In this document: positions 4,253 to 14,044 of the stretch, in pieces
Layout: each line of letters opens with the position of its first letter
How positions within the stretch are numbered: the first letter of the stretch is position 1
Assembly: GCA_016789725.1 (NCBI GenBank)
Contig: JAEUQN010000002.1
Span: forward strand, 24,035-88,034
Direction: 5' to 3'
From: Blastocatellia bacterium
GTDB lineage: Bacteria; Acidobacteriota; Blastocatellia; RBC074
Length of the DNA: 64,000 nucleotides
Notes under the pieces: generated by a model
Databases searched by the model: none
What the model saw: only the letters and a program-made list of their open reading frames with translations
What the model was told of the DNA's origin: nothing
Made by a program: the position numbers and the translations under genes

Positions 4253-4275
4253 AAGTAGCACGTTCAATGCTACTT
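4253..4275. promoter_or_regulatory. palindrome AAGTAGCA-N7-TGCTACTT in the pfkA/ackA divergent region
   Basis: Perfect 8-bp inverted arms (4253-4260 and 4268-4275) lie 21 nt upstream of the pfkA start and 94 nt upstream of ackA ATG 4369. The operator or 5'-UTR hairpin role is unproven. Confidence 0.3.
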
Positions 4276-4368
4276 GAACTCTTTAATGAAGGTGAAAAAT
4301 TTTACGCGACCAACGTCGAAGAAAAATGCCTTTTCGTGCTGGCCTTGTGCTTGCAGTATAGTTTGCCC

Positions 4369-5613
4369 ATGAACATTTTAGTTTTGAACTGTGGTAGTTC
4401 CACGATTAAATTTCAATTGATTGCAACAGACCTGAACGCAATTGAGCAAAACACAGATCGTCGATTGGCGCGCGGCGTCATTGAACGCATTGGCGGCGAA
4501 GCTGTTTTGACCTTGCAGGTCGAAGGACAGACTGTACAACGCGCAACCGCCTTGTTGCACGACATCCGTGCCGCCACAGATTACATTATTCGCTGGGCTT
4601 GTTCAGAAGCCTCTGGCCTGACAGAAATTCAGAGCGTTACCGATATTCAAGCCGTTGGGCATCGTGTGGTCCACGGCGGCGAACGATTTATTCAATCGGC
4701 CTTGATTACCGATGAGGTTCTGCGCGGGATCGAAGATTGTATTGACCTCGCACCATTGCACAATCCTGCCAATATCAAAGGCATTCTTGCGGTGCGCGAA
4801 TTGCTCGGTGCGGGGCTGCCACAGGTTGCCGTCTTCGATACGGCGTTTCATCAAACATTACCGGAACACGCCTATCTGTACGCGCTGCCCTATCAATTGT
4901 ATCGGCGGCATCGCATTCGACGCTACGGGTTTCACGGCACCTCGCATCGTTACATCGCGTATCGGTATCGTCATCTTCGCAATCTCAGCCGCGAAGATGT
5001 GAACATCATTACACTACACCTTGGCAATGGCTGTTCCGCCGCCGCAATTAAGGGCGGCAATTCGATAGATACTTCGATGGGGATGACGCCACTGGAAGGA
5101 CTTATGATGGGGACTCGGTCAGGCGACCTGGACCCGTCCATCGTGGATTTTGTCAGCCTGAAAGAGGGCTTATCCGCACGCGAAGTCGAAAGCTTGCTGA
5201 ACAAACAATCCGGGCTTTTGGGCATCTCTGGCCTGACACACGATATGCGCGATTTGTTGGACGAAGCGCACGAAAACAAAGATCGCCGCGCGTTGCTGGC
5301 AATCCAGATTTTTTGCTACCGTGTGCGCAAATACCTCGGCGCATATTTGGCGGCCATGAATGGCGCGGATGCGATAGTGTTTGCTGGGGGAATCGGCGAA
5401 AACTCCGCTGAGATCCGCGCACAAATTTGTGCCGGATTAGAGTGCTTCGGATTGCAATTAAGCGCTGAACGCAATGCAGAAATTGCATATCTCCGCGAGG
5501 GGCTAATTAGCACTGACGACTCTCGCCTCGCCGCCTACGTGATTCCCACCGACGAGGAATTATTGATTGCGCGCGATACAGTTCGCTGCGTTCAGCTCTC
5601 CAACCCAGCTTGA
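4369..5613 (+). CDS. ackA: acetate kinase
   Basis: The family-typical N-terminus [17 protein letters not shown] begins at ATG 4369, whereas the ORF track starts 34 codons earlier at 4267. Carries [31 protein letters not shown] and GGIGEN motifs. Confidence 0.93.
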
Positions 5614-6515
5614 GTTTCTACGGGTGAGGTTTTGCTTTCTGCTAAAACCAAGCTCGCGGCTTTCACGGGGCGCGCGATTAATACCGGGCACGAAGACTGC
5701 CGTAAAATCGGCTCAATGTGAGAGCTGGATTGCAATTCGCCACCCGTTCCGCTGACGCCCAGACAGATCAGATCAATTTCGTGTTCGTCGGCGTATTCTA
5801 AAATCTCTCGATACGGAACACCTTCACGCACCGTCGCATTGACCTCGCACCAAAGTTGCGCTTCTTCGGGAATGGCATTCTGCAATTCGAGCGCGATGGC
5901 TTCCAATTCACCACTGGAGGACAATCCCGCGTCACCGCTGGTCGGGATTACGTGGAGCAAATGTAGCGCAGCCTGATATTGCTCGGCGAACAGTAGCGCC
6001 AGGCTGAGCGCCAATTCCGAATCGTTCGTAAAATCATATGCCATCAAGATGTTTTTGAGCCGGATTTCTCCCGTATCCGCATTGACCCAATCGTGTTCAT
6101 AGGGATGTGTAATTAGCACTGGACACGGAGCGGAGCGGCTCACCGTTTCGGCAGTTGATCCCAGCAGAGTCGCCGCATAGGTTTGTCGCCGCGAGTGCAT
6201 CACGAGTAGGTCTGCGTGTTGTTCTGCGGCCAGGCGGGGAATGACCTCCGCCGCATCCCCACGCCCGATGATTGGTTCCCAATCCGGCACGCCCGGACGG
6301 CCTGAATCGTCTTGATAGCAATGCTGTTGCACTGCTTCTGTTAACCGAGCGCGCCACTCACCCATCATTTCGTCGGATAGTTCTTCAGCCTCCGCCACGT
6401 GGCACACATACAGTTTGGCTTCGTGATCTTTCGCTAATGCCAGGCCATAGCTCAGCGATTCATCGTGCGATGAATGTAAATCGGTAGGGCAAAAGATTTT
6501 CTCTAAAGTCATCAT
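5592..6515 (-). CDS. tandem-domain universal stress protein (UspA family)
   Basis: Two USP alpha/beta domains (AKLYVCHV ... [27 protein letters not shown]; AALHLLHV ... [20 protein letters not shown]). I placed the start at ATG 6515 (MMTLEKIF) because the longer ORF would run into the upstream gene. Confidence 0.8.
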
Positions 6516-6546
6516 AGGTGATCGCCTTGTTTGGAACGATGTCAGG

Positions 6547-7035
6547 TCAAACGGTTTCGCGGGCTTGTTCACCCGCGTGATAGGTGACATACACGAAGAT
6601 CGGAGTTTTCAAATCGCCTAAATGTTTTTTGACCAGCGGATACACGTCTTCCCAATTCAACCCTCCCACGCCGGTCGCCAGACGAGGCAGCGCGACGCTG
6701 GTAAATTCCTCTTTTTCGATCAAGTGCCGTAGTTCTTTGAGCGCGTGACTGACATTGTGAATGGACGCTTTGCCCGGATTTGCCTGATGGTTTTGCGGTG
6801 CTTCCTGTGTCAATAAATTGACCAGCCGTTTGCCGTCGGTGCCGCCCCAAACCCACGCGCTGCCGGGCTTGGGATGTGACACGTGGCAGTAGTGACGAAA
6901 GTCCTGATACATGGCCGGCCATTGTTCGCGTAACGCCAATGCCAAGCCCGAAGAAAAATGATCATTCGGCGCAATGCCGTGCGCGATGGCCTGTGCTGTA
7001 GTTAGTAAAATATCCCCGGTCACTTCTTGAATCAC
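6547..7035 (-). CDS. stand-alone macrodomain protein, TARG1/DarG-like subtype
   Basis: The N-terminus EVTGDILLTTAQAIAHGIAPNDHFSSGLALALREQWP resembles the GDLF..x..SLAHCIS.D..MGAGIA pattern of TARG1-type macrodomains. The distal ALPRLATGVGGL matches the macrodomain diphosphate-binding loop. Confidence 0.75.
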   Translation of the reverse strand: MIQEVTGDILLTTAQAIAHGIAPNDHFSSGLALALREQWPAMYQDFRHYCHVSHPKPGSAWVWGGTDGKRLVNLLTQEAPQNHQANPGKASIHNVSHALKELRHLIEKEEFTSVALPRLATGVGGLNWEDVYPLVKKHLGDLKTPIFVYVTYHAGEQARETV

Positions 7036-7064
7036 AATGATTGCTCCTTTAAAAAATAGTCATC

Positions 7065-7403
7065 TCAAGCCTGCGCTTTTTCAGCACAGGTTACACATCG
7101 GCTGGCGTGCGGTAAGGCTTCGAGCCGTTTGAGTGGAATCGGTTTCCCACAGCTTTCACAAACGCCATAGATTCCTTCATCCAAGCGTCGCAGGGTTAGT
7201 TGAATCTGTTCGATCTCGGTACGAATCGAATTGTCCAGCGCATCCAGCACTTCGTCGTTTTCGCGTTGAACCGCCTGCTCGGCAAAGTCCGCGTTTAGTG
7301 GTTCGTTGGCGTGTTGTACATCGCGCGAAATTTTTTGCAGGCGTGTTTGAATCGCTGCGAAACGCGAGGTTAATTGTTGTCGAATCGTGTCGTACTCTTG
7401 CAT
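7065..7403 (-). CDS. TraR/DksA family C4 zinc-finger protein
   Basis: Coiled-coil N-terminus followed by CESCGKPIPLKRLEALPHASRCVTCAEK (CxxC-N17-CxxC). ATG 7403 has GGAG 6 nt upstream. The ORF could also start at 7418. Confidence 0.8.
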   Translation of the reverse strand: MQEYDTIRQQLTSRFAAIQTRLQKISRDVQHANEPLNADFAEQAVQRENDEVLDALDNSIRTEIEQIQLTLRRLDEGIYGVCESCGKPIPLKRLEALPHASRCVTCAEKAQA

Positions 7404-7433
7404 AGCAATCTCCATCATTTGTCCTGTCGTCTG

Positions 7434-8372
7434 TTATTCGGCGGACGACCAAACGGGAATTTCCTGAAAGGAATTGGGGGGATTGTCGAGAGCGGGAACC
7501 GCTAACACCGGGCAATCAGCCGCGCGCACAATGCGCTCAGTCGTACTGCCGCGTAGCGCATCCAGGAACCCGTGATGGCCCTCCGTTGCCATCACAATCA
7601 AATCCGCGTTGCCATGTTCCGCCGCGCGCAAAACTTGTTCTTCGATGTCGCCATACTCCAACGAGGCTTCCCATTTCCAATGCTCGCCAGCGTAGGTTTT
7701 GATAGCCGGAAAACTTCTGGATGGCCCGATATGCAACACGGTAAACAAGACGTCCGTGCAGCCGAGCAATTCGGCAATTGAAGCTGCCGCGTTAATTGCG
7801 ATTTGTGGTTGTGGCGCATGATCCACCGGAATCAAAATGTGCTTCAGATTGACTGCGCCGTCCGCCAGTGAAACAAATCCTTCGACCCCCTCTGGGATGA
7901 ACAACGTCATTTCACCAGAACGCCGCGCGACAGATTCCGCAATCGTTTTATGCGTCAGGCGTTCCAATCCCCTGTATTGATGTGTTGCCAGTACAATCAG
8001 GTCGTGTGGATGTTTGTGCAGATAATGTAAGATAGATTCTTCTGTGTTTTTATGAGAGGCCGAAATTTTTTCGATCTTCAAGCCGATGTCGGCAAAAGCC
8101 TCTTTCGGCGCATTCGGCGGTAACATGTCCCATCTTTCCAGCGTCGTTCTGACGCGCGGAAATTCGCTCCAATGCCGATTACTTTGATCTGTCTCAGTGT
8201 GTAGGATCGTTAATTGCCCATGTTCCAATGTGGCAAATTTTAGGGCGTGGGCAAAGGCTACCGCACTGGTCTCTGAAAAATCTGTCGGATGAAAAATTCG
8301 ATTCCACGCTGGTTGCGACGGAATCACTTGATATTGTAGATGTGCGCTAAATGTTGTTTCGATGGAAACCAT
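7434..8372 (-). CDS. tandem-domain universal stress protein (UspA family)
   Basis: Two USP domains (GQLTILHT ... HDLIVLATHQYRGLERL..KTIAESVARRS; VLFTVLHI ... ADLIVMATEGHHGFLDALRGSTTERIVRAADCPVLAVP). Confidence 0.8.
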   Translation of the reverse strand: MVSIETTFSAHLQYQVIPSQPAWNRIFHPTDFSETSAVAFAHALKFATLEHGQLTILHTETDQSNRHWSEFPRVRTTLERWDMLPPNAPKEAFADIGLKIEKISASHKNTEESILHYLHKHPHDLIVLATHQYRGLERLTHKTIAESVARRSGEMTLFIPEGVEGFVSLADGAVNLKHILIPVDHAPQPQIAINAAASIAELLGCTDVLFTVLHIGPSRSFPAIKTYAGEHWKWEASLEYGDIEEQVLRAAEHGNADLIVMATEGHHGFLDALRGSTTERIVRAADCPVLAVPALDNPPNSFQEIPVWSSAE

Positions 8373-8474
8373 ATTGCTTTTCCTCTCTCAGGGCTAAAAC
8401 TAACTGTACTCTTATCCAGCAAGTGGTGTTCCTTACGATTTCACGGTCGCAAAAGTGGGATTTCCCCCGATGTT

Positions 8475-8490
8475 TGCGAAACTTTTCGCA
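8475..8490. promoter_or_regulatory. 16-bp palindrome TGCGAAACTTTTCGCA, candidate Crp/Fnr-family operator
   Basis: TGCGA-N6-TCGCA geometry, the same spacing as CRP TGTGA-N6-TCACA. It lies in the divergent USP-operon/cytochrome region. Its centre is 82.5 nt from ATG 8565. A near-identical copy lies at 13055-13070. Confidence 0.35.
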
Positions 8491-8564
8491 CAAAAGGCTG
8501 TGGCATTGACCTTGCTCAGATGGGAAAAAATTCTAACTGCCCCAAAGTCCCCAAAAGGAGTGTT

Positions 8565-9377
8565 ATGCGAAGAATTAAACTTGGATTAGTGATTGCCTTT
8601 AGTACGGTCAGTTTATTGTTGGTGGTGGCGGTCGCGCAAAAATCTTCCCGCCAGCCAAGTCGTACAGTGTCTGCGGTCTACCGCGAAAATAATTGCGTGA
8701 TTTGTCACGCAAGTTTGGTCGAACCGGTTGGGGTGAGCGCGCATTTTTACGAATGGCGAAACTCGAAGCATGAAAAACGTGGCGTTAGTTGCGAGAAATG
8801 TCATGGAGGCGATCCGACCTCGAAAAGTCTCACCACAGCGCACGAAGGGGTTCTTGCGCCGACCTTCGCACAAAGCAAATTGCATCCGAAGAATTTGGCG
8901 ACCACTTGTAGCGCCTGTCATCAGGATGTGGTCAACGCCTTTGTCAAAAGCACGCATTATCAAAAACTCCAGGAATCTAATGCCGCTCCCAGTTGCACCA
9001 ATTGCCACCATCACATGGCGACGTCCGTGATTACGTGGCCGCCGGATACGGCGGCGCTTTGTGCGAAATGTCATCAGGCGGGCGGCGTGGCTTCGCAATC
9101 CGCAAAAGTGCCAACCCGGGCCGGAGAAACGATTGCTGCTTTCAGTCGCGCTGATGGCATTGTCGAATGGGCCAGAGAATTGATCCGCGAAGGCAAACAG
9201 AAAAAACTCTCTTTCAAAGCAGAAGAAATTCAGTTGCAAAAATTTGAGAAGTCCCTGAAAGACGCGAAAACGCAATGGCACGCGTTCAACCTGACAGATT
9301 CACGCCAAACTGTAGATGAAGTCTTTCGTCAGGCGACCGTTGTAAAAGATGGCGTTTGGAAGAAATTACCTGAATAA
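8565..9377 (+). CDS. pentahaem c-type cytochrome, N-terminally membrane-anchored or secreted
   Basis: Five CxxCH motifs (CVICH, CEKCH, CSACH, CTNCH, CAKCH) within the first ~170 aa, then a ~100-aa helical tail. I placed the start at ATG 8565 (MRRIKLGLVIAFSTVSLLLVVAVA) behind AAAAGGAG. The ORF-track start at 8340 adds an implausible extension. Confidence 0.85.
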   Translation: MRRIKLGLVIAFSTVSLLLVVAVAQKSSRQPSRTVSAVYRENNCVICHASLVEPVGVSAHFYEWRNSKHEKRGVSCEKCHGGDPTSKSLTTAHEGVLAPTFAQSKLHPKNLATTCSACHQDVVNAFVKSTHYQKLQESNAAPSCTNCHHHMATSVITWPPDTAALCAKCHQAGGVASQSAKVPTRAGETIAAFSRADGIVEWARELIREGKQKKLSFKAEEIQLQKFEKSLKDAKTQWHAFNLTDSRQTVDEVFRQATVVKDGVWKKLPE

Positions 9378-9379
9378 GC

Positions 9380-9436
9380 ACGAGAGAGCCGCTGAGGAAG
9401 TTTGGTTGCTAAAGGCCCGGCTCTCTCGTCTTTCCT
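9380..9436 (+). terminator. stem-loop downstream of the first cytochrome gene
   Basis: Perfect 12-bp stem ACGAGAGAGCCG (9380-9391) / CGGCTCTCTCGT (9418-9429) followed by CTTTCC. The loop is large (26 nt) and the T-tract is weak. Confidence 0.45.
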
Positions 9437-9661
9437 GGAGACACTGCTCTTTAGACAGCAATCTGGATGCCAAAGCCTTTCGCCCTGATTTAAGGGGGAT
9501 TTATGCGTTTTGGCACCATCTAAACGCGTGATTTCCCACAACTAATGAGGAACTTTCCTCATTGCACCGCGAACTCTTCCCCCTTCAGCTTGAAAAGAGG
9601 TCCCCATTCAACTGGCATATCGGTTGCTCCCAAATGAGGTAAAAGGAGTGCTGTTGAAATT

Positions 9662-10480
9662 ATGAAGACCATTCGTCGGCTAAAGACAAGTTTTTGTATT
9701 CTGACATTCGCTGTATTTTCTGTGGTCTGGGCACAGAACAATCAGTCAACCGTTTCTCCGCAAAAGTGGGAAACCGATTATCGCAATAATAATTGCATCA
9801 CTTGCCACGCCCAGTTGACACAGCCAGTGGCCCTGAGTAATCGCTATTTCGAGTGGCATTCATCCGCCCACCGGGATGTCGGAGTGTCTTGCGAAAAATG
9901 TCATGGTGGCAATCCTGCGACTGCGGATAAGGCCAAAGCACACGTTGGAATCTATCCCTATGCCAATCCCGAGAGCCGGATTCATTTTCGGAATTTGCCT
10001 GTTACCTGTCAGTCGTGTCATCAGGGCATCGTCAACACCTTTGTCGAGAGCAAGCATTATCAAAATCTGAAAACGACCGGATTGGGGCCGAGTTGCTCGA
10101 ATTGTCATGCCCACATGGCTTCTGAGGTAGTGTTATCGCCGCAACAAATCTCTACGCTCTGTGCGTATTGCCACGACACTGTGAATGGTGCCTTACCGCC
10201 GCGCCCGGACATCCGCGAGAAAGCCGAGGCCGTGATGCAATCGCTGAACCGGGCGGATGTCGCTGTTTCCTGGGCATCAAGTTTGCTGCGCGAAGCTGAA
10301 CTGAAGCGATTGTCTATTGCGACCGAACGTCTACAGGTCTCAGCCGCTCAGGGCTTGCTCAAAGATGCCAAATTCAGTTGGCATTCCTTTGCCTTGGAAG
10401 CGACGCAAAAGAAAGCCGACGAGGCCTTTGCCCTGGCGATGAGGGCCAGAGAAGACTTGGGGAAAAAGGTCAATCATTGA
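9662..10480 (+). CDS. pentahaem c-type cytochrome, paralog of 8565-9377
   Basis: Signal peptide ending VWA|QN. Five CxxCH motifs (CITCH, CEKCH, CQSCH, CSNCH, CAYCH) are collinear with the upstream paralog. Both share YFEW..S.H...GVSCEKCHGG and a C-terminal WH(A/S)F motif. Confidence 0.85.
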   Translation: MKTIRRLKTSFCILTFAVFSVVWAQNNQSTVSPQKWETDYRNNNCITCHAQLTQPVALSNRYFEWHSSAHRDVGVSCEKCHGGNPATADKAKAHVGIYPYANPESRIHFRNLPVTCQSCHQGIVNTFVESKHYQNLKTTGLGPSCSNCHAHMASEVVLSPQQISTLCAYCHDTVNGALPPRPDIREKAEAVMQSLNRADVAVSWASSLLREAELKRLSIATERLQVSAAQGLLKDAKFSWHSFALEATQKKADEAFALAMRAREDLGKKVNH

Positions 10481-10490
10481 AGAGGAAGTT

Positions 10491-10868
10491 ATGAGCTATC
10501 CAAACACGCTGGCACTGGATTTGATAACTGTCTTGCGTTGGGCCGCGCGAGCCATGAGTGCGATCAGCATTGGGATCGTCGCGTTATTTTTTATTGGCGA
10601 AGGATTCAACCCGACCAAAATTTCGTTACAGGAATGGGCGTTATTTTTGTGTTTTCCCTTTACGGTTGTGGTTGGCCTGATGATGGCGTGGCGTAATGAA
10701 TGGCTGGGCGGAACCATCGCTATCGGCGGATTGCTGAGCTTTTATCTGGTTCACGCCTTGGTGGCGAACGGGCATTTGCCAACTGGCTGGGCGTTTGGGG
10801 CGTTTACTTCGCCGGCCTTGCTATTCTTGTTATATGCGGTGCTGGCGCGTGCGACGAAACCTCGCTGA
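10491..10868 (+). CDS. small integral membrane protein (about 4 TM), unknown family
   Basis: Starts 10 nt after the cytochrome stop, behind GAGGAAG. Four hydrophobic helices. No family recognised. Confidence 0.6.
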   Translation: MSYPNTLALDLITVLRWAARAMSAISIGIVALFFIGEGFNPTKISLQEWALFLCFPFTVVVGLMMAWRNEWLGGTIAIGGLLSFYLVHALVANGHLPTGWAFGAFTSPALLFLLYAVLARATKPR

Positions 10869-10938
10869 CCAAACGGTCAGGCTTGTGATGATGCTGTAAT
10901 CCGAGGACAATTGCGGCGAAATCTACTTGGAGGCACGC

Positions 10939-11883
10939 ATGAAAAAGACGACCCCGTTTGGCGCAATTGAAGTTTTGGATGCACACACCCATTTCTTTTC
11001 ACACCGATTTTTTCAAACTCTCATTAGTCAATCGCCTGCGTTGAGCAAAGAAGCGGATTCAATGGCGCGCGTGGGCGAAATCACGGGATGGACAATGCCA
11101 CCGAGGAATCCGGCGGAGCTGGCCGCGACGTGGCAGTCTGAGTTGGATCGGCATCAACTCTCTGCGGCGATGATGATGGCGAATGTGCCGAATGATGAAG
11201 AGTCCATTGCCACGGCTGTCGCCACATTTCCGAACCGTATCATTGGCGGTTTCTTTCTTGACCCTACCAAACCGGATGCTGAAACCCGTGCCAAACGGGC
11301 GTTTGATGAATTGCATCTGCGCGTGGCGTGCTTGTTTCCGGCAATGTTTCATTTCTCAATGGCGGAAAACGAAGGTGCGCGCGCGGTTGTTGCTTTGATC
11401 AGCGAGCGTCCCGGTACAGCGATTTTCGTGCATTGCGGTGCGCTTTCGGTAGGAGTACGCAAAAAGCTTGGTTTGCTGAGTAAATTTGATCTACGTTACT
11501 CAAACCCGTTGGAGATTTACAAACTCGCGGCAGAGTTTCCCCGCGCGAATTTCATTGTCCCGCATTTTGGTGGCGGGATGTTTCGAGAAGCGATGATGCT
11601 GGCGGATTTATGCCCGAACGTGTTTCTGGATACATCAAGTAGTAACAAGTGGATGCAGTATGAGCCGTCGCCAACGAACTTAGCGACCATCCTCCAACAA
11701 GCGTTACAAGTAGTGGGACACGAGCGATTGCTGTTTGGTTCAGATTCCTCGTTTTTCCCGCGTGGCTGGGTGTCGGACGTGTTTTATGCGCAGGTGGATG
11801 CGCTGCTCAAAATCGGCGTCAGCGAAGAACAGGCACAAGCTATTTTGGGAGGCAATCTGAAGCGATTGTTTGGCCTGCCGTAA
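10939..11883 (+). CDS. amidohydrolase-2 (TIM-barrel metal-dependent hydrolase) family protein
   Basis: N-terminal VLDAHTHFF (HxH metal motif), VHCG, and distal [14 protein letters not shown] 10939 sits 5 nt after GGAGG. The ORF-track TTG 10927 is less likely. Confidence 0.75.
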
Positions 11884-11891
11884 GTTACGCT

Positions 11892-12395
11892 TCAATGGTC
11901 ATTCTCTTTCTTTTTTTCCGACGACTTCTGACCTTCGGTGGTCATTGCTTCGCCTGCGGCGGTTGCGTTGGCACGAATTTCCGTGTGCCGAATTTGCCCA
12001 CCCAAATTGGCGGCATATCCCAGCAAACCTGTCGCTACCAATCCAAACACCAGCGTCATTGGAACCAACCATTTCGCCCGATGCTGAAACAACCAGGCTC
12101 CCAGGGCAATAAGGCCTGTTAATCCTGCGACAACCAGAGCGATTTTGGCAAAGTCTTCATGCCGTTCAATCAACGCGTGCGTGACGCCGGGCAAGTACTC
12201 TGCGACCTCTTCGGCGGGTTCGCCAGTGAGATAGGCTGGGATGGCAAAGGCGGCTGCGATGACCAAAACACCAAGGCTGGTTTTTTTGAGTTCCTCGCTG
12301 CTGCGCAGGACCGCCCACAGCAGCAATAACACTCCTATCATCATTCCAATTACAGGTACATGATTTAACAGCAAATGCCAGTGTGCTGGGTTCAT
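11892..12395 (-). CDS. integral membrane protein (about 4-5 TM), unknown family
   Basis: The N-terminus is MNPAHWHLLLNHVPVIGMMIGVLLLL, and further helices follow. Lies directly downstream of the hemerythrin gene (24-nt gap). ATG 12395 has AGGAG 7 nt upstream. Confidence 0.6.
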   Translation of the reverse strand: MNPAHWHLLLNHVPVIGMMIGVLLLLWAVLRSSEELKKTSLGVLVIAAAFAIPAYLTGEPAEEVAEYLPGVTHALIERHEDFAKIALVVAGLTGLIALGAWLFQHRAKWLVPMTLVFGLVATGLLGYAANLGGQIRHTEIRANATAAGEAMTTEGQKSSEKKKENDH

Positions 12396-12425
12396 ACTCA
12401 TTCTCCTTGCGGGATCGCTAGGCTT

Positions 12426-12980
12426 TTACACTGCCCACGTTTTTTCTAACTCCGCTGCTAAGTCTTCATAATGCTCGACGGACTTTTCACCTAAGCCATA
12501 CTCAGCTTTGGCAAAGGCATAATTGATCGCGGCCTTCGCTGGCTCATCCAGTATCTCTTCCGCCAGCATAAACAAAATCGAATCCTCGCGGCGCATGTGG
12601 CTCGACAGATGTCGGCTGTAAATGCGCGCATGGTCAATGATTCGATGTTTGGCCGCAGCATCTCCATTTCGGTAATCCGTAACCGCCGCACCAAGATCAA
12701 TCAATAATTGCCGTTCGACCTGATGTTCATGTTTGAGGAAGCCAAGGGGACCACCTTCGACCAGCATGCCACTTTGCTGGAGGGCTGGGAAAAGATACAT
12801 TTCTTCCTTTTCGTGATGAAATCGGTCTGCGTAAATTTGCACAAAATCCAGTGCCTGAACGAGCGCTTCGATGGGAACCTCTTCGTTCAGTTCCAGGCGC
12901 GTGCAAACGCCATCAAGAGCGCGTAACGCTTGTTCAATAATGCGATGTTCGTGTTTGAGCATATGTGTTGGTCGTGACAT
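12426..12980 (-). CDS. hemerythrin (HHE cation-binding) domain protein
   Basis: Repeated H/E ligand motifs: LKHEHRIIE, FHHEKEEMYLFP, LKHEHQVERQLL, HMRREDSILF. AGGAG lies 9 nt upstream of the ATG. Confidence 0.85.
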   Translation of the reverse strand: MSRPTHMLKHEHRIIEQALRALDGVCTRLELNEEVPIEALVQALDFVQIYADRFHHEKEEMYLFPALQQSGMLVEGGPLGFLKHEHQVERQLLIDLGAAVTDYRNGDAAAKHRIIDHARIYSRHLSSHMRREDSILFMLAEEILDEPAKAAINYAFAKAEYGLGEKSVEHYEDLAAELEKTWAV

Positions 12981-13054
12981 AGTTCGTATCTCCTTTTAGC
13001 TTCGCCGCCGTTACTTCATAGATAAAATTATTAGTGCCAAGGTGCATCAAAGGC

Positions 13055-13070
13055 TGCGAAAGCTTACGCA
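13055..13070. promoter_or_regulatory. 16-bp near-palindrome TGCGAAAGCTTACGCA, candidate Crp/Fnr-family operator
   Basis: Identical to the 8475-8490 element at 13 of 16 positions. Its centre is 82.5 nt from the hemerythrin start codon (12980), the same spacing as at the cytochrome gene. Confidence 0.35.
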
Positions 13071-13327
13071 ACACTTTCTGTACCATTCCAAATAATACCT
13101 GTTGCAATCCGCATGCCTGTGTCTGTTGAAAGACATTTGGGGAAAATTTTTGTGTCTTGAACAAAGGATCATTTGGGCTATTGGGGGAGTTTGCGCAGCA
13201 ACCGTGCAGAATCACTCTCTTAATCCGGTAATACTCATTTCCCAGGACCGATTCAGCCACGGCATATAGGTTGCCTTTATAAAAACTCAGTTGCCGATGG
13301 ATTAGTAATTCTTTGCTAAGTGACTTT

Positions 13328-14044
13328 ATGAATTTTGTCTACCATGCAGCAATCATCAAGCGTTGCCATAGTTGTAAAGGCTATTTCCCGCAATCTTTTT
13401 GTGCGATGTCGCCCGCGCCGCTTCAGGCCTTTGAGCAAATTGTTCATTCACATTTTTATCCCCAAGGAACGTTATTGTTTTTGGAAGGGCAACCCTCGCG
13501 CGGCGTGTTTATTCTTTGCAGTGGGCGCGCCAAACTCTCTTTTAGCTCAGGGAATGGAAAATCGCTGATGCGAGTGACGGATCCGGGGGAAATTCTCGGC
13601 TTAAGTGCGGTGATTTCAGGTGCACCGTATGAGGTTTCGGCGGAGATGCTCCACGATGGACAGGTGAAATTTGTTCAGCGGGAAGTGTTTCTGCAATTTT
13701 TACAGGAGCATGGCGAAGCCAGTTTGCACGTCGCCAAATTGTTGAGCCGTGCCTATTCTACCGTTTGCGATCAGGTGCGCTCGTTGGCGCTTTCGGATTC
13801 CGTCGGTGAAAAATTAGCCAAGTTATTACTCGACTGGTGTGCGAGTGAAGGGAAGGAAACAGAGCACGGAATTCATCTGAAGCTTTCGCTGACGCACGGA
13901 GAAATCGCGCAAATGATCGGCGCTTCACGCGAAACGGTCACACGACTCTTGGGCGATTTGCGTAACAAACGTGTGATTGGGCTGAACGGTTCCAGCCTCT
14001 ACATCCAAAATAAAGCGGCGTTGGAAAGCATTGTGAATTTTTGA
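13328..14044 (+). CDS. Crp/Fnr family transcriptional regulator with N-terminal Cys cluster
   Basis: cNMP-binding beta-roll ([24 protein letters not shown]), dimer helix, and a C-terminal HTH ([24 protein letters not shown]). The N-terminal [13 protein letters not shown] (CxxCx8C) is present only if the start is ATG 13328 or TTG 13313. ATG 13406 is an alternative start. Confidence 0.85.

Follow-up and report, generated by a model that had tools for sequence, protein, structure and literature searches.

Two 16-bp palindromes, S1 and S2, are found in a 64,000-nucleotide stretch of the genome of a Blastocatellia bacterium (the window; assembly GCA_016789725.1, contig JAEUQN010000002.1), S1 in front of a multihaem cytochrome gene and S2 in front of a hemerythrin gene. 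An initial annotation had attributed both to a Crp/Fnr-family regulator encoded next to S2. Our analysis leads to another binder. With a probability of about 0.7, S1 and S2, together with the palindromes S0, S3 and S4 and a tandem pair upstream of a second cytochrome gene, are upstream activating sequence sites of a sigma-54 enhancer-binding protein (EBP), most probably of a response regulator encoded on another contig, C626. The anatomy of the sites and promoters, their conservation, the phasing between them, the co-occurrence of activator and sites among genomes, and the sites in front of the activator gene itself were observed directly in the sequences.

The genome of the window, G000, comprises 7.77 Mb in 636 contigs, and the window lies on contig C222. 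Relatives are referred to by similar numbers. The sites and promoters on which the argument rests are given below in positions of the window; palindromes carry no strand, and scores are those of a position weight matrix (PWM) made from 23 orthologous sites.

8418-8433, minus strand: P_usp, sigma-54-type promoter AGGAACACCACTTGCT of the universal stress protein (USP) operon, read directly; GG and TTGC are kept in G005, and the spacer varies.
8454-8469: S0, weak partner palindrome AGTGGGATTTCCCCCG, PWM 10.3, its centre 21 bp from that of S1.
8475-8490: S1, TGCGAAACTTTTCGCA, PWM 17.9, between the divergent P_usp and P_cyt1.
8501-8516, plus strand: P_cyt1, sigma-54-type promoter TGGCATTGACCTTGCT of cytochrome 1; TGGCAT and TTGCT are kept in G005, and the spacer varies.
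9525-9561: tandem palindromes CGCGTGATTTCCCACA (9525-9540, PWM 12.9) and TGAGGAACTTTCCTCA (9546-9561, PWM 11.9), 21 bp apart, upstream of cytochrome 2.
9613-9628, plus strand: P_cyt2, sigma-54-type promoter TGGCATATCGGTTGCT of cytochrome 2, by sequence reading.
13055-13070: S2, TGCGAAAGCTTACGCA, a conserved block in four genomes.
13102-13118, minus strand: P_hem, sigma-54-type promoter AGGCATGCGGATTGCAA of the hemerythrin/membrane-protein operon; GGCAT-N5-TTGC in all four genomes, with a varying spacer.
13182-13197: S3, TGGGGGAGTTTGCGCA, PWM 19.1, common to the divergent P_hem (gap 64) and P_crp (gap 63) and kept in four genomes.
13203-13218: S4, second tandem position 21 bp from S3, degenerate in G000 (CGTGCAGAATCACTCT, PWM 1.9).
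13260-13274, plus strand: P_crp, sigma-54-type promoter CGGCATATAGGTTGC of the Crp/Fnr-family gene; GGCATAT.GGTTGC is invariant in four genomes.

The sequences and coordinates of S1 and S2, and the 82.5 nt from each centre to the ATG it faces (8565, plus strand; 12980, minus strand), are as first described. Their CRP-like 5-N6-5 geometry stands as well, and footprinting in the relatives bears out that the palindromes are genuine cis-regulatory elements: both are conserved blocks in diverged intergenic alignments, S2 across four genomes and S1 in G005, and are therefore functional. The near-identity of the two sites and the shared 82.5 nt, to which the initial annotation had given weight, are accidents of G000, since both sequences and distances change among the relatives. 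In G005, S1 reads TGCGCAACTTTGCGCA, altered symmetrically in both half-sites, and S2 in the three relatives reads TGCGAAAGCTTGCCCA, TGCGGGATCTTCCACA or, in G005, TGGGGAATCTTCCACA. The distance from S2 to the ATG is 83.5, 76.5 or 133.5 nt in the relatives, and that from S1 is 72.5 nt. Unlike these distances, those from S1, S2 and S3 to the promoters are conserved.

The motif is also different from the core that the two sites first suggest. TGCGA-N6-TCGCA shows no enrichment, with 5 exact copies against about 8 expected in the 7.77-Mb genome and, when one mismatch is allowed, 6 matches against 5.2 expected in the 64-kb window; at this chance frequency it is ruled out as the motif proper. S1 and S2 share 7-base half-sites, TGCGAAA, that extend beyond the 5-base TGCGA. 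The genome has only three matches to TGCGAAANNTTTCGCA at up to one mismatch. S1 and S2, 4.6 kb from each other, account for two of them, and finding another such site within 5 kb by chance has a probability of about 0.0014. The third match (C636:42849) adjoins a start codon without promoter context and was judged to be chance. Both sites are instances of a 16-bp motif, TGnGnAA-N2-TTnCnCA, in whose half-site TGnGn the G2 and G4 are the most conserved, invariant positions, and positions 3 and 5 are degenerate. Nor is this motif confined to two places, as had been supposed, for S0, S3, 9525-9540 and 9546-9561 lie in the same window. A matrix scan of the whole genome finds 13% of the matches in intergenic DNA at low scores, 52% at scores of at least 17 and 67% at scores of at least 18 (p ~1e-5). 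Because the intergenic share climbs with the score, the motif is taken to be real.

It is very improbable that the likeness of S1 and S2 is chance and that the sites have no function. Such a view can draw on the chance frequency of the 10-base core and on the expectation of about 0.5 matches per 64 kb for 13 of 16 positions of a given 16-mer, but it leaves unexplained the conserved blocks amid diverged intergenic DNA, the conserved distances to promoter elements, the intergenic enrichment of matrix matches and the strict phasing of promoter gaps described below. It can also point to a palindrome within the hemerythrin open reading frame (ORF), TGCGTAAATTTGCACA at 12828-12843, which has a PWM score of 18.5, on par with S1 and S2. 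The orthologous codons in G004, G005 and G011 score 8-9, and this palindrome is set aside as probably a chance coding match.

The promoters that the palindromes serve are of the sigma-54 type, with -24 and -12 elements conserved in the alignments, and not the class-II sigma-70 type. In the four promoters flanking S0/S1 and S3/S4, GG and TTGC are invariant and the spacers vary (2-4 genomes compared). Throughout G000, TGGCA[CT]-N5-TTGC[AT] is 65% intergenic against a baseline of 13%, and the genome carries rpoN (at C153) and 44 EBP genes. A sigma-70 reading of the cytochrome 1 promoter, through TTGACC at 8506-8511, was rejected, as this hexamer is lost in G005 where TGGCAT and TTGCT are kept. 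Also rejected was TGGCAC-N5-ATTTT, a possible sigma-54 promoter in the interval from S2 to the hemerythrin ATG, which has no -12 GC, is out of phase and is lost in G004.

Palindrome and promoter are found together as a module well beyond the window. The composite pattern palindrome-N{47,77}-GGNA-N6-TTGC has 11 matches in G000 and 0 in three scrambled or reversed controls; S3 yields matches on both strands. Among 41 relatives the number is 0-13 matches per genome, with about 0 for the reversed control. The 150 listed gaps between palindrome and promoter peak at 51-52, 62-64 and 73-74 (chi-square p = 1e-34), and a search for short gaps adds peaks near 10-11, 21 and 31, so that the overall peaks relative to the GG element fall at about 11, 21, 32, 42, 52, 63 and 73. 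S1, at gap 11 from P_cyt1, is among the short ones. Its proximal position is therefore a recurrent variant, with all positions on one face of the helix. Where palindromes are in tandem they are usually 21 bp apart (21-23 bp), dyad-symmetric and in helical phase. Most modules, and S3, lie at about -85 to -107 of the predicted starts, roughly the usual enhancer range of 70-150 bp.

The individual promoters fit this layout. The gaps from S1 to the GG of P_cyt1 (11) and to that of P_usp (42) are identical in G000 and G005, and the G005 orthologue of S0, TGTGGGATTTCTCGCG, is a conserved block in the alignment. Transcription is predicted to begin near 8527, 9639 and 13286 on the plus strand and near 8408 and 13092 on the minus strand. 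On the start predicted from P_cyt1, the centre of S1 would be at about -44 and that of S0 at about -65. For cytochrome 2, the proximal palindrome is 52 from the GG of P_cyt2 and the distal one 73 by coordinates. Across genomes the gap of S3 is 62-64 to P_hem and 52-63 to P_crp. The S4 position, degenerate in G000, is a good palindrome in the relatives (CGCGCAGAATTGCGCT in G004, CGCGGAAATTCACGCG in G005 and TGCGCAAATTAACGCT in G011). Downstream of P_hem, 33-35 bp separate S2 from the -12 element, and its distance to S3 is 126-128 bp, or 12 helical turns. As an RNA hairpin in the leader S2 is unlikely, since by inspection it would form at best 4 bp with a mismatch and a 2-nt loop.

Sigma-54 promoters need an AAA+ activator. 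Neither the 64-kb window nor the 10 kb around each of the 12 orthologues of the Crp/Fnr gene contains an EBP gene. The candidate lies outside the window:

G000 contig C626, 5363-6823: candidate activator, an NtrC/AtoC-type response regulator of 486 aa with receiver (REC), AAA+ and helix-turn-helix (HTH) domains.

It alone of the 44 EBPs in G000 has a module within 6 kb of its gene, with TGCGGAATTCTCCCCG and AGGCACGTAACTTGCT at gap 21. Tandem palindromes and TGGCA[AG]-N5-ATTGC stand directly upstream of the activator gene in 11 of 11 genomes of the same genus. Across the class there is one orthologue per genome (65-91% identity), and genomes with an orthologue at 68% identity or above average 5.1 modules, as compared with 0.33 in the rest (p = 7e-6). 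Even the 17 genomes that have the activator and no Crp orthologue (none at E <= 1e-20) average 4.0 modules. Behind the activator gene of G009, and overlapping it, comes a gene for a PAS histidine kinase of 373 aa with several Cys in the PAS region, and the 20-kb island around them (C27:1-20000) contains USP genes, ackA, a pyridoxamine-oxidase-like gene, a PAS response regulator and a P-type ATPase; several of the island genes have a sigma-54 promoter upstream, most of those with a dyad.

Several observations weigh against this assignment. The association between activator and modules ignores shared ancestry, and another EBP of the same distribution would fit equally. An argument from autoregulation applies as well to the Crp/Fnr gene, which also bears a module. 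The loop of the activator reads GAFTDA and not the canonical GAFTGA. G006 and G037 have the activator and yet no strict match to the composite pattern, although modules are present on direct inspection. The degeneracy of the motif at positions 3 and 5 leaves room for several paralogous activators to share it. Finally, the centre of S1, at about -44, is nearer to the promoter than enhancer sites usually are, and S2 lies downstream of P_hem, with its centre at about +29 of the predicted transcript. The GAFTDA variant is seen in three or four of the 44 EBPs of G000. In G006 the activator (88% identity) has tandem dyads and a sigma-54 promoter in front of its gene and no strict match in the 47-77 range elsewhere, which suggests a much smaller regulon in that genome.

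Alternatively, the sites could be sigma-54 enhancers of an EBP other than the one at C626, or of several paralogous EBPs that divide them by half-site positions 3, 5 and 6. In the latter version one activator would act on S1 and S2, whose half-sites both read TGCGAAA, and a second one on S3. We regard this as rather unlikely. The 44 EBPs of G000 offer many candidates, motif positions 3 and 5 are indeed degenerate, and the targets span from copper-related loci with a multicopper oxidase to hemN; in Desulfovibrio, groups of EBPs are known with similar TGT-N(9-12)-ACA motifs (PMC4641369). Set against this, the C626 activator is the only one in G000 with a module near its own gene, and the half-site variants shift at orthologous sites, S1 having TGCGA in the window and TGCGC in G005 and S2 having TGCGA or TGGGG. 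Variants so unstable argue against fine specificity classes. The C-terminal HTH tails of the EBPs of G000 are, moreover, diverse and do not form one expanded family; a large subfamily with one common HTH was sought among these tails and not seen.

The regulator to which the sites were first assigned is encoded beside S2 and S3:

13328-14044, plus strand: Crp/Fnr-family regulator (Pfam cNMP_binding and HTH_Crp_2), by sequence a target of the module.

Its close orthologues keep an N-terminal C-x2-C-x8-C, a beta-roll Cys (ILCSG) and the helix SRETVTR. No NCBIfam equivalog fits the protein; these features suggest an Fe-S sensor of the FNR kind that reads DNA with a head resembling that of CRP. Palindromes and a conserved sigma-54 promoter precede the gene in 10 of the 12 orthologues, and equivalent promoters also precede the more distant ones. 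This gene is best understood as one more target of the sigma-54 module.

That this regulator itself binds S1, S2 and perhaps S3 as a dimer, in a local regulon of its own, or binds besides the sigma-54 activator, for instance at S2 as a modulator, is unlikely. The geometry is that of CRP sites, 5-N6-5, and the helix RETVTR is compatible with the conserved G2 and G4 of TGnGn, which we take to correspond to the G5 and G7 contacted by R180/E181 of E. coli CRP, a compatibility with the R180/E181/R185 contacts being likewise presumed. Among the four Crp-family proteins of G000 only this one has the RETVTR helix; the remaining three have different helices, and none of these paralogues was retained as a universal binder. 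The gene adjoins S2 and S3, with palindromes upstream in most orthologues as noted, and activator-positive genomes with a Crp orthologue have 6.6 modules against the 4.0 of those without (p = 0.04). This excess, however, is largely the 1-2 matches of the Crp locus itself, and genomes without the orthologue can be rich in modules (12 in G008, 6 in G001 and 5 each in G003 and G009). The hemN gene of the Crp-less G031 has TGGGGAAATTTCCCCA, a perfect TGGGGAATTTCCCCA-type dyad, with a sigma-54 promoter. Every promoter served is of the sigma-54 type, the alignments show no conserved sigma-70 -10 element downstream of either S1 or S2, and to our knowledge a Crp-family protein cannot activate sigma-54 promoters. 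Thus the regulator is most likely not the binder: modules are equally common in relatives without it and track the unlinked activator.

A narrower role is conceivable, although doubtful. The FNR-like, probably Fe-S-bearing regulator would be a target of the sigma-54 regulon and, in addition, a second reader of the same dyads, with S2 as one candidate site; the CRP-type R-E-R helix of the protein fits TGnGn-N6-nCnCA. If so, an O2- or NO-sensitive protein of the Crp family would gate or override sigma-54 promoters driven by the activator; a circuit with two sensors of this kind is not known to us from the literature. One further palindrome concerns this regulator. TGTGATCTGAATCACA, at G000:C16:7860-7875, is the only perfect CRP-consensus palindrome in the genome and is intergenic, with sigma-54-like promoters on both sides at gaps 52 and 55, on a contig that also has ccoN and a FixI/CcoI ATPase gene. 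It might be a genuine operator of the Crp-like regulator, since the AA/TT at the centre of the main motif is missing from it.

Returning to activation by the EBP, we infer the identity of the binder, the activation itself and the signal from the sequences, and the mechanism may be pictured as follows. Phosphorylated activator dimers would bind the 16-bp dyads, usually two of them 21 bp apart on one face of the helix, and would assemble into an active ring that uses ATP to open the closed complexes of sigma-54 holoenzyme at the adjacent -24/-12 promoters. The S0 and S1 pair would serve both divergent promoters, that of the USP operon and that of cytochrome 1. Similarly, S3, with S4, would serve the divergent hemerythrin and Crp/Fnr promoters, and the third pair (9525-9561) would serve cytochrome 2. 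NtrC sites act from either side of a promoter. S2, at about +29, lies beyond P_hem as seen from S3, 12 helical turns away; it is most simply regarded as an auxiliary downstream enhancer that would aid assembly of the oligomer, and it may instead have a repressive or Crp-specific role. The mechanism itself is conventional.

The proposal that the cytochrome, hemerythrin and USP genes are linked into one regulon by the sites is upheld. A small and local regulon, as was suggested at the same time, is not what is found, for G000 has about 15-20 sites on many contigs. Targets of the module confirmed by Pfam are hemN, a FixI/CcoI-type ATPase gene beside ccoN, nrfH-nrfA, thioredoxin, a response regulator with a PAS domain and a multicopper oxidase; more USP genes and an Hsp20-like small heat-shock gene were recognized from translated sequence only. 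Three paralogous loci (C111:156829-162823, C116:8909-13317 and C257:380-3386) also carry the dyad/sigma-54 module. Each encodes a protein of 445-461 aa whose N-terminus resembles a signal peptide, together with a longer protein and a small one rich in His (DHHDHGQEMK), and the C111 locus additionally holds the multicopper oxidase. Translated sequences read as outer-membrane and fusion-type proteins, and the three loci look like Cus-type copper efflux sets, which suggests that copper handling is part of the same programme. The regulon is a low-oxygen and stress programme of USPs, the Hsp20-like protein, hemN, the FixI/CcoI ATPase with ccoN, nrfHA, hemerythrin, multihaem cytochromes, the FNR-like regulator and the copper-related loci.

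The closest described system is the NmpRSTU/NmpR oxygen-utilisation regulon of Myxococcus xanthus. There the NtrC-like response regulator NmpR acts at sigma-54 promoters through GCGCA-N5-TGCGC sites arranged in tandem; its regulon, induced by hypoxia, includes a USP, a P-type ATPase with cbb3 oxidase, and hemN with hemerythrin, and it binds the promoter of its own operon (mxan_4236) and that of the nmpU kinase operon in a feedback (PMC11841059, McAllister et al. 2025). The set predicted here is nearly the same, with USPs, the FixI/CcoI ATPase with ccoN, hemN and hemerythrin, and a module before the activator gene. On the kinase side, the Cys-rich PAS kinase encoded after the activator gene in G009 is a candidate. 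The sites differ by 1 bp, being GCGCA-N5-TGCGC in Myxococcus and GCGCA-N4-TGCGC, inside the 16-bp dyad, in the present genomes, and the edge-to-edge distance in a tandem is 14-15 bp there but 5 bp here (21 bp centre to centre). The present regulon also adds multihaem cytochromes, nrfHA, the copper-related loci with multicopper oxidase and the FNR-like regulator.

AtoC of E. coli is the best NCBIfam match of the activator, and the likeness extends to its operators. Upstream of the sigma-54 promoter at atoDAEB, AtoC has two verified sites, GCTATGCAGAAATTTGCACA and GCTATGCAGAAAATTGCGCA, with a spacing of 21 bp (PMC3118216). When we set their 16-bp cores, TGCAGAA-N2-TTGCRCA, against the motif, they agree with it at 15/16 constrained positions and score 13.7 and 15.1 on the PWM. 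Nevertheless, the activator is not AtoC, because it reaches 438.7 bits on NF008469 against an equivalog cut-off of 714. The AtoC alignment also stops short of the C-terminal HTH of the activator, AtoC governs short-chain fatty-acid catabolism, and its sites lie farther upstream, at -184 to -144.

The operators of CRP (TGTGA-N6-TCACA) and FNR (TTGAT-N4-ATCAA) are alike in a third way. They share the 16-bp 5-N6-5 dyad and the conserved G at half-site positions 2 and 4, the family member encoded beside S2/S3 combines a CRP-like helix with an FNR-like Cys cluster, and the gene set recalls the classical FNR/FixK regulons (hemN, cbb3, nrf and USP). The sites described here, in contrast, lie upstream of -24/-12 promoters and not at -41.5 or -61.5 of sigma-70 promoters, and they are also found in genomes without the regulator. 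A literature search on Acidobacteria, sigma-54 and USP found nothing relevant.

The genes around the sites, by ORF and Pfam analysis, are the following.

5592-8372, minus strand: operon USP_b / DksA-like / macrodomain / USP_a (ORF list and Pfam).
8565-9377, plus strand: cytochrome 1 (multihaem), ATG at 8565.
9662-10480, plus strand: cytochrome 2, paralogue of cytochrome 1, ATG at 9662.
10491-10868, plus strand: DUF7670 gene.
10927-11883, plus strand: amidohydrolase gene.
11892-12401, minus strand: membrane protein gene, in an operon with hemerythrin (11892-12980).
12426-12980, minus strand: hemerythrin gene, ATG at 12980.
9458-9471, minus strand: sigma-54-like element GGCATCCAGATTGC aimed at the 3' end of cytochrome 1 (sequence reading, G000 only).

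The USP operon is adjoined in the window by ackA (4267-5613). The cluster is syntenic in three genomes of the same genus, G005, G011 and G004, which all keep the hemerythrin/Crp pair, and the entire cluster is retained in G005. The spacer between cytochromes 1 and 2 (9458-9628) repeats the bidirectional layout found upstream of cytochrome 1. Its element GGCATCCAGATTGC may be either a relic of the bidirectional region left by the tandem duplication or an antisense promoter.

Our study describes what appears to be an EBP/sigma-54 low-oxygen regulon of unusual anatomy, with one site at about -44, one at about +29 and, nested among its targets, a regulator of the FNR kind. For motif work it carries a caution, in that a CRP-like palindrome beside a Crp/Fnr gene need not belong to that regulator. 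Here, sigma-54 promoters drive genes that in Proteobacteria are classically under FNR/FixK, namely hemN, the genes of cbb3 assembly, nrfHA, USPs and hemerythrin. They are served by one phased enhancer dyad, to which an NtrC-type two-component activator probably binds, in parallel with NmpR of Myxococcus. Acidobacteria are among the most abundant soil bacteria, and their regulation is almost unstudied. The motif and the candidate regulator are directly testable, and the low-oxygen and stress regulon may be employed in annotating uncultured Acidobacteria.

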